Origin: Escherichia coli
GTDB lineage: Bacteria > Pseudomonadota > Gammaproteobacteria > Enterobacterales > Enterobacteriaceae
Length of the DNA: 64,000 bases
Assembly (NCBI RefSeq): GCF_029227855.1
Contig: NZ_CP074357.1
Strand: one strand, 5' to 3'
Made by a program: the position numbers. Below are positions 12,001 to 18,000 of the stretch, piece by piece; position 1 is the first letter of the stretch, and every line of letters starts with the position of its first letter.

Positions 12001-15000
12001 CAGCCACATCTACCCACTCAGTTGCCATCTGTTACGTGTTCTTCCTGTGATGATCATGGTCGCTAGTATAATTCTCCGGCTGACTGGACATACAGCATTT
12101 TCTGTCCAAGATTAATAACCTCGAACTGCAACTACAATGCCGCAGATGATGCAAAGGGGGAGCCCGCAGAATTCGGAAAAAATCGTACGCTAAGGTTTTC
12201 CGGGCATCCGTAAGGGCCGAAACTTCCCGTCTTCCAGTCTGCGGCTCTGCCGCCAGACGTAATCGCCGGTTAGGTTGATGTGCTCCCAGCCCAGCGGCGA
12301 CAGGAATTGCAGCAGCTCGCCGTCCACCGGCTTGCCGGCCTCGACCAACCCCTGGGTGGCGCGTTCCAGGTACACCGTGTTCCACAGCACGATAGCCGCC
12401 GTCACCAGGTTGAGGCCGCTGGCCCGGTAGCGCTGCTGCTCGAAGCTCCGATCCCTGATTTCCCCAAGGCGGTTGAAGAACACCGCCCTGGCCAGCGAGT
12501 TGCGCGCCTCACCTTTGTTCAGGCCGGCATGCACGCGGCGGCGCAGTTCAACACTTTGCAGCCAGTCCAGGATGAACAGCGTGCGCTCGATCCGGCCCAG
12601 CTCGCGCAGGGCCACGGCCAGTCCGTTCTGGCGCGGGTAGCTGCCGAGCTTGCGCAGCATCAGCGAGGCGGTGACGGTGCCCTGCTTGATCGAGCTGGCC
12701 AGGCGCAGGATGTCGTCCCAGTGGGCACGCACGTGCTTGATGTTCAGGGTGCCGCCGATCAGCGGGCGCAACGTCGGGTAGGCTTGCACGCCCTGCGGCA
12801 CGTACAGCTTGGTTTCGCCGAGGTCGCGGATGCGCGGCGCGAAGCGGAAGCCTAGCAGGTGCATCAGGGCAAAGACGTGATCGGTGAAGCCGGCCGTGTC
12901 GGTGTAGTGCTCCTCGATCCGCAGGTCGGACTCGTGGTACAGCAGGCCGTCGAGCACATAGGTGGAATCGCGGACGCCGACATTCACCACGCGGGTGCTG
13001 AACGGGGCACTGTTGCAAATAGTCGGTGGTGATAAACTTATCATCCCCTTTTGCTGATGGAGCTGCACATGAACCCATTCAAAGGCCGGCATTTTCAGCG
13101 TGACATCATTCTGTGGGCCGTACGCTGGTACTGCAAATACGGCATCAGTTACCGTGAGCTGCAGGAGATGCTGGCTGAACGCGGAGTGAATGTCGATCAC
13201 TCCACGATTTACCGCTGGGTTCAGCGTTATGCGCCTGAAATGGAAAAACGGCTGCGCTGGTACTGGCGTAACCCTTCCGATCTTTGCCCGTGGCACATGG
13301 ATGAAACCTACGTGAAGGTCAATGGCCGCTGGGCGTATCTGTACCGGGCCGTCGACAGCCGGGGCCGCACTGTCGATTTTTATCTCTCCTCCCGTCGTAA
13401 CAGCAAAGCTGCATACCGGTTTCTGGGTAAAATCCTCAACAACGTGAAGAAGTGGCAGATCCCGCGATTCATCAACACGGATAAAGCGCCCGCCTATGGT
13501 CGCGCGCTTGCTCTGCTCAAACGCGAAGGCCGGTGCCCGTCTGACGTTGAACACCGACAGATTAAGTACCGGAACAACGTGATTGAATGCGATCATGGCA
13601 AACTGAAACGGATAATCGGCGCCACGCTGGGATTTAAATCCATGAAGACGGCTTACGCCACCATCAAAGGTATTGAGGTGATGCGTGCACTACGCAAAGG
13701 CCAGGCCTCAGCATTTTATTATGGTGATCCCCTGGGCGAAATGCGCCTGGTAAGCAGAGTTTTTGAAATGTAAGGCCTTTGAATAAGACAAAAGGCTGCC
13801 TCATCGCTAACTTTGCAACAGTGCCCGATTTATTCAACAAATCCACGTTGTGTCTCAAAATCTCTGATGTTACATTGCACAAGATAAAAATATATCATCA
13901 TGAACAATAAAACTGTCTGCTTACATAAACAGTAATACAAGGGGTGTTATGAGCCATATTCAACGGGAAACGTCTTGCTCGAGGCCGCGATTAAATTCCA
14001 ACCTGGATGCTGATTTATATGGGTATAAATGGGCTCGCGATAATGTCGGGCAATCAGGTGCGACAATCTATCGATTGTATGGGAAGCCCGATGCGCCAGA
14101 GTTGTTTCTGAAACATGGCAAAGGTAGCGTTGCCAATGATGTTACAGATGAGATGGTCAGACTAAACTGGCTGACGGCATTTATGCCTCTTCCGACCATC
14201 AAGCATTTTATCCGTACTCCTGATGATGCATGGTTACTCACCACTGCGCTCCCCGGGAAAACAGCATTCCAGGTATTAGAAGAATATCCTGATTCAGGTG
14301 AAAATATTGTTGATGCGCTGGCAGCGTTCCTGCGCCGGTTGCATTCGATTCCTGTTAGTAATTGTCCTTTTAACAGCGATCGCGTATTTCGTCTCGCTCA
14401 GGCGCAATCACGAATGAATAACGGTTTGGTTGATGCGAGTGATTTTGATGACGAGCGTAATGGCTGGCCTGTTGAACAAGTCTGGAAAGAAATGCATAAG
14501 CTTTTGCCATTCTCACCGGATTCAGTCGTCACTCATGGTGATTTCTCACTTGATAACCTTATTTTTGACGAGGGGAAATTAATAGGTTGTATTGATGTTG
14601 GACGAGTCGGAATCGCAGACCGATACCAGGATCTTGCCATCCTATGGAACTGCCTCGGTGAATTTTCTCCTTCATTACAGAAACGGCTTTTTCAAAAATA
14701 TGGTATTGATAATCCTGATATGAATAAATTGCAGTTTCATTTGATGCTCGATGAGTTTTTCTGATAGTTAGTCTTTGTAGAGACACAAACCTGAAATTCC
14801 GGACACCGCGCTTCAGGACATCTCCCTGGACGCCGATATCTGGCAGTATCCGGACGGTACTATCGAACGCCGGGCCAACGGTACTCCCCTGCCCTTTATG
14901 ACTGACGACCGGCTATTTCACCCACGCACTTCTCCATGAAATTTAGCATCGTCGCGGTTAATGTCGAAAATTTGCCACCTGACGTGGTTGGCATCGAGGG

Positions 15001-18000
15001 TGAAAGGCACTGTTGCAAAGTTAGCGATGAGGCAGCCTTTTGTCTTATTCAAAGGCCTTACATTTCAAAAACTCTGCTTACCAGGCGCATTTCGCCCAGG
15101 GGATCACCATAATAAAATGCTGAGGCCTGGCCTTTGCGTAGTGCACGCATCACCTCAATACCTTTGATGGTGGCGTAAGCCGTCTTCATGGATTTAAATC
15201 CCAGCGTGGCGCCGATTATCCGTTTCAGTTTGCCATGATCGCATTCAATCACGTTGTTCCGGTACTTAATCTGTCGGTGTTCAACGTCAGACGGGCACCG
15301 GCCTTCGCGTTTGAGCAGAGCAAGCGCGCGACCATAGGCGGGCGCTTTATCCGTGTTGATGAATCGCGGGATCTGCCACTTCTTCACGTTGTTGAGGATT
15401 TTACCCAGAAACCGGTATGCAGCTTTGCTGTTACGACGGGAGGAGAGATAAAAATCGACAGTGCGGCCCCGGCTGTCGACGGCCCGGTACAGATACGCCC
15501 AGCGGCCATTGACCTTCACGTAGGTTTCATCCATGTGCCACGGGCAAAGATCGGAAGGGTTACGCCAGTACCAGCGCAGCCGTTTTTCCATTTCAGGCGC
15601 ATAACGCTGAACCCAGCGGTAAATCGTGGAGTGATCGACATTCACTCCGCGTTCAGCCAGCATCTCCTGCAGCTCACGGTAACTGATGCCGTATTTGCAG
15701 TACCAGCGTACGGCCCACAGAATGATGTCACGCTGAAAATGCCGGCCTTTGAATGGGTTCATGTGCAGCTCCATCAGCAAAAGGGGATGATAAGTTTATC
15801 ACCACCGACTATTTGCAACAGTGCCGTCAGGAAGAATCATCCAAAGCTGCCGAACTGCAAGCTCGTCAGGAGAAACTTGACGCCCTGCGTAAGTTAATGG
15901 AAGAAGATGGTATCAACCCGGAAGAGCTGCTTGGCTCATTCCAGGCCAAATCTACGGCTACCAAGAAAAGCCGTGGACCACGCCCGGCCAAATACTCATT
16001 TACTGATGAAAATGGCGAAACAAAAACGTGGACTGGACAGGGCCGTACCCCCAAAGCTCTGGCAGAACAAATTGCAGCCGGTAAAAGTCTTGATGATTTC
16101 CTGATCTAACTTTTGCCACCAGTTTTGATAGAGGCCACTTCGGTGGCCTTTTCTCATACGGAATCAATTTCAGGTACAGAACATATGAAAAATTCAGAAC
16201 CTAAGAGCTGTGATCCCTATGTGGACAGTTTGATTAGAAATGCAGATGCAAAGGAAGCCAGGGCATTTCTCAAAATATTGAAGCCCTTACCATTCCTTAT
16301 CGTTATCATCGCTGTATTCTTTTTTTGGGTATCGTTTTCCCGTTTATTATCCCAGGTCGCGTAAAACCTTTTTAAAGACTCTTCTTTACCAGATATGCTC
16401 CCTCACCGGGATGGTTTCAACCTCTTCAGTTTCCCATATTGGCAAAACCGTCAGGAAATAAGACGATACCCTCCACGCTTTCCATTAAAGCGGGATGACG
16501 ACGCCCAGTTCTTACGACCAGACTCCACGTTTTCGATAAGGATGCCTTTGGGCCCTTCTAACGAGGCCACCTCAACAACCCGCACTTTCCGGATCAGTCT
16601 TGGATCCACTTCTTCCCAGATCTGGCCAACTGTAATTTCTTTTTGGGTTTGCATTTAATCTCTCGCTGTCATTTAGTGAACAAGACTAATCCTCGCCGTG
16701 GTTCAGCTTATGGCTTTATTTACGCTGACGATCCTTAGCCTTAAATTTTTGCCATCGTATCCGAAGGTTTTCGATGTTAACCGGAACCTGCATGCGTGTC
16801 GTCTCTATCTCATTCCCATGCCATTTCAGGAGATCATCATCCAACTCCCGGGCCTCCCGGCTGAAGTAAATTTTCATAGTGTCAGGGTTTATGGCGCAAT
16901 GGTCATTGTCGAACAGTGTATGGATATCACGGCGAAGTAAAATTCCGTTCGTTACGTCGGGAATGCCTTCTTCATGACGTGGCGTTAAGTGCGCGGCCTC
17001 AGTACGCCAGGGGGACCTTACGCCGGTGACAACACATCGCCCGTAGCAATTCAACCTAACATCCCGGGCGAAAGGACCTTGGTCAGGACTGGTGACAGAA
17101 GTACATTCCTGGCCCTCTTTGTAGATACGCTTCGGGAAGTCGATAGTGGTTTGAGCTGTTTGGGAAAGTGACACATACGTAACCCCTTTGTATCTCTTTA
17201 TCCCACCATTAAAAGTGGTAGGAATCGAGCTGGTTATGGCCACCAGTTTCACATCGCCCATTTCGACGATCTTAAGGCTCTTATTAGCGGCTACATGTAA
17301 CTGGATGAATTTACCTACGTACACATCATGGTTCTCATCTTGTCTTTCAACACACAGAACGACATGGTCGAAGGTTCTCTTGTCAGAGATTACCCAGTTG
17401 CCGGTTTTCACACGGCCTGCTTCACTCACCCCTGCGGTAAGATCGGGTATGAGCGTCCCCTGCATGCCGTCAGTTCGAATTGAAAGAATTTCACCCGATA
17501 AACCCAGCTCTGCAAGCTCACTAATAAACGGTCTTTTCATCCGGCTTACCGGTTTTGGCTTCGTCATTTTCATCTTTGCTGTAGCACCTCAGTACCCCAT
17601 TGCTCGTTCCTGGCGGGACAGCCGTTCATCAGCAGCCTGAAGACGCTCATCACGCCGCCGTGCTGCCAGAACCCGTCGTTCTGAAAAAGACATAGCCGCT
17701 ACGTTTGGTACGCTGAGCTTACCGTCACCGGCACAAACGTTACAGCGAACATCAAATGCTCCGGCAAAATACTTTTCACGCATTTCTGGCTCCCACTCAG
17801 CCATTTCTGATTGGGTGAATCCATTTTCAAAGGCCGGGTTTTCCATGGTCCCGTGGCCTTCGCACTGGTGACAGATTATGTACTTAAATTTGCGCATGTA
17901 ACGCTCCTGTATATGATGGATGAACCACTCTCGTTCAGGGTTATGGCGAAATGTTTATCGCCGCAGCGAGAGATTCAGTCTTGCTATCAATATTCCTGAA

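Follow-up and report, generated by a model that had tools for sequence, protein, structure and literature searches.

Inverted IS26 copies around aph(3')-Ia within a probable IS26 mosaic of an IncHI2 resistance region

The stretch of Escherichia coli DNA analysed here (64,000 nucleotides of contig NZ_CP074357.1; hereafter the window) is a resistance region belonging to a plasmid of type IncHI2. It contains three identical full copies of IS26 (820 bp each, with inverted repeats (IRs) at both ends) and a part of another one. Copy 1, at 1999–2818 on the minus strand, is 'copy 6' of PMC9019673; repeat finding places the fragment, a 301-bp 5' part with the IRL end only, at 6084–6384 on the plus strand. 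The earlier note on this DNA had located the fragment correctly and copy 1 one base too far to the right (2000–2819). Copy 3 (13006–13825, plus strand; repeat finding, ORF reading and Pfam) carries tnp26 at 13069–13773, and copy 4 (15006–15825, minus strand) has its IRL against a truncated hns gene. The IS26 transposase is the product of a single gene for a 234-amino-acid DDE protein (Pfam DDE_Tnp_IS240, E=2e-48), annotated as IS26 family transposase WP_001067855.1. By repeat finding and direct reading, copies 3 and 4 are 100% complementary over 820 nucleotides each, with 1180 nucleotides between the arms, and both carry the 14-bp IR GGCACTGTTGCAAA. Because tnp26 reads inwards from each of them, both IRR ends face the passenger. 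Copies 1 and 4, according to repeat finding, are direct repeats, 13,007 bp from start to start. The features of this region are not chance occurrences, as shown by their exact identity to known elements.

The passenger carries aph(3')-Ia (aphA1), a kanamycin–neomycin phosphotransferase gene at 13949–14764 on the plus strand, which encodes 271 amino acids (allele WP_000018321.1; Pfam APH, E=1e-33). In the annotation of identical plasmids this protein is called APH(3')-Ia by AMRFinderPlus at 100% to the reference; the allele differs from that of R478 by five amino acids. Judged from its sequence, the gene is predicted to confer resistance to both kanamycin and neomycin. Next to copy 3, at 13826–13844, lies a 19-bp remnant of a terminal IR of the IS903 group, cut by IS26; it matches the terminal IR of IS903B, as annotated in p7PM1, at 18 of 19 positions. 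It precedes the start of aphA1 by 104 bp, presumably the same position as in Tn903. The likeness to Tn903 and Tn602, the IS903-group compound transposons with aphA1, ends there: only these 19 bp are left, and the sequence downstream of the gene is of the R478 type, not of the Tn903 type. This downstream segment (14765–15005; 241 bp), of the type of PTnaphA1-R478, is 98% identical to R478 and colinear with it after removal of the catA1 unit, and from 13867 onward the passenger is colinear with PTnaphA1-R478 at 98–99% identity. In the literature, R478-type aphA1 downstream sequence has been traced to the Klebsiella michiganensis chromosome (PMC12670165).

Scanning for promoters gave two candidate native aphA1 promoters on the plus strand, TTGTGT-17-TACATT (13847–13875) and GTTACA-18-TATCAT (13869–13898), both inside the passenger, and the scan picked up no promoter-like site outside it; TTGTGT-17-TACATT has been proposed in the literature as a promoter for pIE545. 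PTn4352, PTn6020, PTn6179 and PTnaphA1-R478 all have direct IS26 copies, with passengers of 1040, 1254, 931 and 4364 bp, respectively (PMC12670165), and a hybrid promoter with an IS26 -35. Here, in contrast, the distance from IS26 to aphA1 is 41 bp greater than in R478, and IS26 stands beyond the IS903-group IR remnant. The gene probably uses its own promoter rather than a hybrid one formed with IS26. With inverted copies and a 1180-bp passenger, the structure is not PTn4352, and the earlier note was right to set it apart from the direct-repeat Tn4352.

To the left of copy 3 lies the end of Tn1721/Tn1722 (TnAs1 in ISfinder and PGAP naming), of which the last 849 bp survive. Its tnpA-proximal terminal IR (12157–12194, as placed by the earlier note, plus strand; 38 bp, outer end at 12157), GGGGAGCCCGCAGAATTCGGAAAAAATCGTACGCTAAG, occurs exactly and only once in the window, where no match is expected by chance; it is identical letter for letter to the published Tn1721 IR (PMC7864471) and to that of a chromosomal Tn1722 copy. 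The adjoining 3' remnant of tnpA (12190–13005, minus strand), non-functional and with its stop codon inside the IR, is identical at 271 of 271 residues to positions 718–988 of the 988-amino-acid TnAs1/Tn1722 transposase and covers positions 141–389 of the 389 in Pfam DDE_Tnp_Tn3, a partial domain. The left IS26 does truncate a Tn3-family tnpA, as the earlier note stated, but the loss is larger than the 5' half, amounting to 717 of 988 codons (73%). Neither a second IR nor tnpR, res, mcp or tet(A) of Tn1721/Tn1722 is present in the window, and the piece is a remnant, not a transposon, since the complete element would have two IRs and a 5-bp duplication at its ends. Identical DNA is annotated as TnAs1 family in RefSeq, and PMC9019673 names the remnant delta-Tn1721 or delta-Tnp1721 (848 bp). 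The Tn1721 end adjoins a backbone fragment derived from IncX1 (8611–12156), which includes an AAA ATPase gene (9512–11413) and an ORF of 169 amino acids (11519–12028) and is 98% identical to the IncX1 plasmid pSCU-390-2, where the site is uninterrupted (...GATGCAAAG|GACAATT).

To the right of copy 4 is the 3' part of the IncHI2 hns gene (15826–16109, plus strand). The intact gene is 405 bp long (NZ_CP015833) and its last 284 bp are kept, so that the first 121 bp have been lost; the right IS26 thus removed the 5' end of hns, as the earlier note had it. In Pfam, the remnant lacks positions 1–37 of the Histone_HNS_N profile and keeps the C-terminal domain, whereas an intact homologue has both; the full H-NS architecture, an N-terminal oligomerisation domain with a C-terminal DNA-binding domain, is absent. 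Twenty-four codons from within IS26 and the hns remnant together form an ORF of 118 amino acids (15753–16109, plus strand), which PGAP labels H-NS family protein; what RefSeq records list under this name is an artefact, produced by the fusion of a truncated gene to IS26. Scanning upstream of the fusion ORF turned up no promoter-like site, and the ORF is probably not expressed. It seems quite improbable that the ORF yields an H-NS fragment with the central and DNA-binding parts but without the first dimerisation site, which would have a dominant-negative effect or counteract silencing. Since the IS26|hns junction is found in about 13% of 948 sampled IncHI2 plasmids, such a fusion, if expressed, could change plasmid 'stealth' silencing, fitness cost or thermoregulated conjugation, and IS26 at hns would then have been selected for more than carrying a resistance gene.

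At least 62 plasmids in PLSDB, all of them IncHI2-sized, contain 11000–17500 with 100% identity, and these complete records come from several genera and countries. Besides IS26|hns, the other three junctions have distributions of their own: tnpA|IS26 is present in 170 PLSDB records, an IncX1 plasmid among them, IS26 with the left end of the passenger in 73, and the right end of the passenger with IS26 in 100. That tnpA|IS26 is so widely shared contradicts the view that the tnpA truncation was made in the present plasmid context. The unequal distributions of the four junctions indicate that the module was assembled stepwise and not inserted as one unit, and we regard the region, with high probability, as a stepwise-assembled IS26 mosaic in the IncHI2 resistance region that owes its mobility to a larger unit between direct IS26 copies. 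Each IS26 would then be a recombination joint between unrelated DNAs. The left joint would have the Tn1721/Tn1722 end attached to the IncX1 backbone fragment, and the right joint the IncHI2 hns without its first 121 bp; in the 1,180-bp passenger, aph(3')-Ia and its native promoter region stand between the IS903-group IR remnant and the 241-bp segment of R478 type.

The 8-bp flanks of the IS26 copies were compared, as the earlier note had suggested for inferring the order of insertions. No pair, direct or inverted, was found among the four copies, and there is hence no target-site duplication; PMC9019673 likewise reports none at the IS26 copies. The missing pairs, like the IncX1 backbone to the left of the IR with its uninterrupted site in pSCU-390-2, speak for assembly in steps. 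The order of events is not reconstructable, and PLSDB has neither reciprocal junction (the 5' part of hns with IS26, or Tn1721 at the IncX1 site).

Because copies 3 and 4 are inverted, no translocatable unit can be excised from this pair by Tnp26 or RecA, and 13006–15825, with its 100% complementary copies, is not a pseudo-compound transposon, which has IS26 in direct orientation; functional compound structures of the IS6 family carry direct IS copies (PMC7986276). The 13.8-kb segment bounded on the left by copy 1 and on the right by copy 4 (1999–15825; 13,827 bp) is one, as shown by its direct IS26 copies and by the exact loss of the passenger plus one IS26. This 13,007-bp deletion, leaving a single IS26, was found in eight records, namely three independent natural isolates and five laboratory-derived progeny of a single study. 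The segment corresponds to TU-B of PMC9019673, and it would be the effective mobile or deletable unit. Homologous recombination between copies 3 and 4 would flip the 1,180-bp passenger, and the phenotype should stay the same after the flip because the promoter moves with the gene. The flipped isomer, with identical outer flanks, was found in five public plasmids and verified in pPK5074-MCR1; in principle these five could be assembly choices across the 820-bp repeats. For the same region, both inversion and the loss of a translocatable unit, TU-B, have been shown experimentally (PMC9019673). The expectation in the earlier note of further IS26-driven rearrangement is thus borne out, and since public assemblies already include the two inversion isomers as well as the deletion product, its proposal to look for isomers by long-read sequencing is largely answered.

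The structure is apparently the same as TU-B, or the right variable region, of the IncHI2 plasmid pOYZ4 and its integrated form in a Salmonella chromosome (PMC9019673). The layout given there, IS26-aph(3')-Ia-IS26-deltaTn1721(848 bp)-...-IS4321R-IS26, is matched, and the 8 bp to the left of copy 1 (1991–1998), CGTCGCGC, equal the flank published for TU-B; no difference was detected at the level examined. The hns truncation (the word 'hns' does not occur), the IncX1 origin of the flank and the composition of the passenger are not discussed in PMC9019673. The database matches include progeny plasmids described there.

How the inverted pair arose can be explained in other ways. In one step of intramolecular replicative transposition in inverse orientation, IS26 could have made the pair and inverted the aph segment; the products of such a reaction are two IS copies in inverted orientation with an inverted segment between them (PMC7986276), and a similar event has occurred elsewhere in the same plasmid lineage (PMC9019673). 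It predicts reverse-complement 8-bp target copies, one inside one IS and the other outside the other, and neither pairing was found: CGATTTAT is not the reverse complement of GTCAGGAA, nor CTGAACGG that of GGGTGAAA. Together with the differing distributions of the junctions, this makes a one-step origin unlikely, unless the 8-bp signature was lost through later events. The inverted bracketing has a named precedent in Tn6023 (GU562437; Cain & Hall 2011) of the IncHI2 plasmid pSRC125, described as aph(3')-Ia with an IS26 on either side, the two in inverse orientation (PMC6657655). It is nevertheless very unlikely that 13006–15825 (2,820 bp) is a true, Tn6023-like composite transposon that moved here as a unit. 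Its outer 8-bp flanks are unequal (CTGAACGG and GTCAGGAA) and of unrelated origin, one lying in Tn1721 tnpA and the other in IncHI2 hns, so that removal of the module restores no single target site. In plasmids of other types the left junction is found with no module attached, and IS26 moves via cointegrates, functional compound structures of the IS6 family having direct repeats. Compared by description, Tn6023 measures 2.6 kb, a second-hand figure, and lies inside Tn5393e instead of between Tn1721 tnpA and hns.

Repeats of IS26 are a classic source of misassembly. That the inverted arrangement or its isomers reflect collapsed or mis-joined 820-bp repeats is a highly improbable reading: the flipped form is rare (five records), but the arrangement is shared at 100% identity by the at least 62 independent complete records, and both outer junctions are intact in the flipped ones. 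Derivation of the tnpA and IR remnant from a Tn5393-like transposon without strA-strB, the identity proposed in the earlier note, can be discarded with near certainty: both transposons are of the Tn3 family with IRs ending in ACGCTAAG, the colinear plasmid pR18.0877_278k has a genuine Tn5393 IR, accompanied by strAB, some 6.5 kb further left than the window reaches, and Tn6023 was originally discovered within Tn5393e, but the remnant matches neither the 81-bp terminal IR of Tn5393 as found beside strB (20 of 38 positions, against 38 of 38 for Tn1721) nor the Tn5393-type TnpA (53% identity, against 100% for Tn1722), and both the RefSeq (TnAs1 family) and the PMC9019673 (delta-Tn1721) labels disagree with it.

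The region, very probably a stepwise IS26 mosaic, is an ordinary and already published part of a multidrug-resistance plasmid (PMC9019673), and beyond correct annotation its importance is small: the remnant should be annotated as Tn1721, not Tn5393, and the inverted IS26 pair should not be called a transposon. It shows in textbook fashion how resistance regions are built and reshuffled by IS26: a resistance gene lies between inverted IS26 copies and is yet lost or moved within a larger unit bounded by direct ones.

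The stretch analysed here is a resistance region of an IncHI2 plasmid. Its positions 11000-17500 are matched over the full length, at 100% identity, by at least 62 PLSDB plasmids, and among the matches listed all are IncHI2-sized (about 200-315 kb), with Salmonella, E. coli, Klebsiella, Enterobacter and Shigella as hosts. The window is colinear over positions 1-24038 with pR18.0877_278k, a plasmid of Salmonella Goldcoast, and the remainder resumes beyond an IS21 polymorphism; in pR18.0877_278k an IS21 (istA/istB, about 2.1 kb) is inserted at the point corresponding to 24033-24038, and the window is without it. 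The configuration recurs without change in dozens of public plasmids and has a published description, so it is already known.

Repeat finding places two IS26 copies at 13006-13825 and 15006-15825, in inverted orientation, as two 820-nt arms that are 100% complementary and 1180 nt apart. They enclose aph(3')-Ia (13949-14764), and the right-hand copy abuts a truncated hns gene. A third full copy lies upstream at 1999-2818, one base lower than the earlier note had placed it, and a 301-bp IS26 5' fragment occupies 6084-6384. Every full copy is bounded on both sides by the 14-bp inverted repeat (IR) GGCACTGTTGCAAA and encodes a 234-aa DDE transposase. In the pair flanking aph(3')-Ia the transposase genes point inward, so that both IRR ends lie toward the passenger. 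The inverted pair, the aph gene and the hns truncation were all found where they had been reported.

The Tn3-family remnant to the left of the module had been attributed to Tn5393; the readings of IS26, aph, hns and the rearrangement potential stand, and it is the identity of the transposon that changes. The 38-bp IR has a single exact occurrence in the window, at 12157-12194, and includes the stop codon of a 271-codon tnpA 3' remnant (12190-13005, minus strand). The IR agrees letter for letter with the published Tn1721 IR (PMC7864471). An E. coli chromosome has a complete mcp-tnpR-tnpA element with an identical IR, and residues 718-988 of the 988-aa transposase of this element match the translated remnant (271/271 identical). 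Since searching the literature for the IR sequence of Tn5393 gave no match, the references for that transposon were an 81-bp IR directly 3' of strB in pR18.0877_278k and a transposase gene that this IR likewise bounds. This strB-adjacent IR we take to be that of Tn5393, as the established structure of that element implies. A Tn5393 origin of the remnant is rejected by these references, with only 20 of the 38 IR positions matching and a protein identity of 53%. Judged by its IR and tnpA alignments, the very comparison that the earlier note had proposed, the remnant is Tn1721/Tn1722 and not Tn5393; RefSeq labels the same DNA 'TnAs1 family' in more than 2200 E. coli records. The loss from tnpA also exceeds the 5' half previously described: IS26 took 717 of 988 codons (73%), and positions 1-140 of the Tn3 DDE domain are missing from the remnant. 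A second Tn1721 IR exists after tet(A)-pecM within the segment 123240-135731 of the colinear plasmid NZ_CP037959.1; its orientation is that of the window IR, and its outer flank (TTTAA) is different. This second IR adjoins IncHI2 backbone that is normally upstream of hns and is here inverted relative to the hns remnant, terminating at IS1B.

From about 8611 to 12156, on the left side of the Tn1721 IR, the window consists of IncX1 backbone, and the IncX1 plasmid pSCU-390-2 has the uninterrupted site, ...GATGCAAAG followed directly by GACAATT. No IncX1 plasmid in PLSDB was found to carry the opposite end of Tn1721 at the CAAAG site, and all 158 matches are uninterrupted on that side. The IncX1 fragment (8250-12156) holds the dqlB region, a 633-aa AAA ATPase gene and a 169-aa ORF that is annotated 'peptidase M14' and is without a Pfam match; 172 PLSDB records, small IncX1 plasmids among them, cover at least 80% of 8900-12256. 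Just upstream of the ATPase gene, a 38-mer (9353-9390, minus strand; GGGTTCCACTTGGAAAATGGAAAACATCCTACGCTAAG) resembles a Tn3-family terminal IR, matching that of Tn1721 at 26 of 38 positions with the end ACGCTAAG; it is perhaps a relic IR, perhaps a Tn3-derived miniature element. Farther left, within 2819-4110, IS4321 (IS110 family; CDS about 3022-4026) adjoins the upstream IS26 and is followed by a partial Tn21-family IR end (...CCCACGCTAAG, 4096-4109), consistent with the targeting of 38-bp IRs by this IS. Chromosome-like genes among IS elements (glutathione synthase, a DUF1158 gene and the RamA-family regulator WP_004202492) lie at 4444-7255, with the 301-bp IS26 fragment in their midst. 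Upstream of the same IS26 copy, a 32-nt GC-rich direct repeat occurs three times at 1544-1767 (78-100% identity, spacing 79 and 113 nt).

The 1180-bp passenger between the IS26 pair consists of three parts. The first, 13826-13844, agrees at 18 of 19 positions with the terminal IR of the element annotated as IS903B; it is what remains of an IS903-group element after truncation by IS26. The upstream region plus aphA1 (13867-14818) is 99.2% identical to R478 (NC_005211), and 14808-15005 is colinear with the R478 passenger at 98% after removal of the catA1 unit inserted in R478. Compared with the R478 allele, the aph(3')-Ia allele of the window (WP_000018321.1) shows the differences K27R, D48N, L101I, A126V and S137C (window residue first). 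It presumably differs from the Tn903 protein at five positions too, and would then represent a third allele lineage. Segments of the R478 type have been traced to Klebsiella michiganensis, and passenger lengths are 4364, 2296, 1254, 1040 and 931 bp in the named IS26 aphA1 elements, 980 bp in Tn903 and 950 bp in Tn602 (Moran and Hall; Harmer and Hall). The passenger of the window equals none of these in length.

The named pseudo-compound transposons (PCTs) have a hybrid promoter with its -35 in the IS26 IR (PMC12802963). Such a promoter was rejected for the present aph gene, from which IS26 is 41 bp farther upstream than in R478 and which has no acceptable -10 at 16-18 bp past the TTGCAA of the IR. 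The only promoter-like site in the promoter scan was GTTACA-18-TATCAT (13869-13898), within the passenger, and 13847-13875 has the TTGTGT-17-TACATT motif that was proposed as a promoter for pIE545. We infer from these motifs that aph(3')-Ia has its own, passenger-borne promoter. The module is not PTn4352, PTn6020 or PTn6179, from which it differs in orientation, passenger length and promoter arrangement alike. Among named elements, the nearest to the inverted pair is Tn6023, an element of about 2.6 kb inside Tn5393e in the IncHI2 plasmid pSRC125, in which aphA1 lies between inversely oriented IS26 copies; compared by description only, the window module has the same orientation but a different length (2.82 kb).

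Functional compound structures of the IS6 family have direct IS copies (PMC7986276), and movement in this family takes place via cointegrates or translocatable units (PMC7986276; PMC12802963). The inverted pair therefore cannot release its passenger; homologous recombination between the two copies can flip it. Five IncHI2 plasmids matched a synthetic version of the flipped isomer at 100% over 1620 bp, unbroken, and in one plasmid, pPK5074-MCR1, all four junctions are as predicted for that isomer, with the outer flanks unaltered. Repeat finding also showed the IS26 copies at 1999-2818 and 15006-15825 to be direct repeats at a distance of 13,007 bp. A search with a synthetic sequence of what loss of this 13,007-bp unit would leave gave eight records at 100%, five of them progeny plasmids of PMC9019673 and three independent isolates, from humans and a chicken. 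That published account of the same region describes a delta-Tnp1721 of 848 bp and the translocatable unit TU-B [IS26-aph(3')-Ia-IS26-deltaTn1721-IS4321R], and demonstrates TU-B loss and IS26-mediated inversion experimentally; its 8-bp flank CGTCGCGC is found in the window at 1991-1998. The proposed potential of the region for rearrangement is thus borne out by five flipped isomers, eight exact deletion products and published experiments.

The flanks of all four IS26 copies include no 8-bp target-site duplications or inverted 8-bp pairs, and an absence of shared IS26 flanks has likewise been reported for this plasmid lineage (PMC9019673). The outer flanks of the module come from unrelated DNA, so that its deletion restores no gene. 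In PLSDB, the tnpA-IS26 junction is present in 170 records, including a 46.5-kb IncX1 mcr-3.5 plasmid with a different flank at the IR; the left and right junctions of the passenger with IS26 occur in 73 and 100 records, respectively, and the IS26-hns junction in about 13% of the 948 hns-bearing records. We conclude that a block of IncX1 fragment, Tn1721 end and IS26 was united with the aph passenger by separate IS26 events, and that the truncation of tnpA is earlier than the arrival beside hns. The hns 5' end plus GTCAGGAA joined to IS26, as expected from inversion or simple insertion, is absent from PLSDB, where all 732 matches have hns intact to that point. Neither reciprocal junction that could order the IS26 events (hns 5' to IS26, or Tn1721 IR to CAAAGGACAATT) exists in PLSDB. 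In pR18.0877_278k, the 96.5 kb examined lack a 1.4-kb segment that includes the 5' end of hns, and the backbone usually upstream of hns is about 28 kb off, inverted relative to the hns remnant. This situation is compatible with, and hints at, an old inversion followed by a deletion.

The hns remnant (15826-16109) lacks the first 121 bp of the 405-bp intact copy in the IncHI2 plasmid NZ_CP015833. At 15753-16109, PGAP/RefSeq has a protein of 118 aa under the name 'H-NS family nucleoid-associated regulatory protein' (WP_065311124.1), which starts at an ATG inside IS26 (15753) and has 24 IS26-encoded codons in frame with the truncated hns. This fusion keeps positions 38-78 of the N-terminal domain profile and the entire C-terminal DNA-binding domain. 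The promoter scan gave no promoter-like site upstream of the fusion ORF, which is probably a pseudogene. Its expression as a dominant-negative fragment, which we regard as highly improbable, is the sole moderately novel reading that remains.
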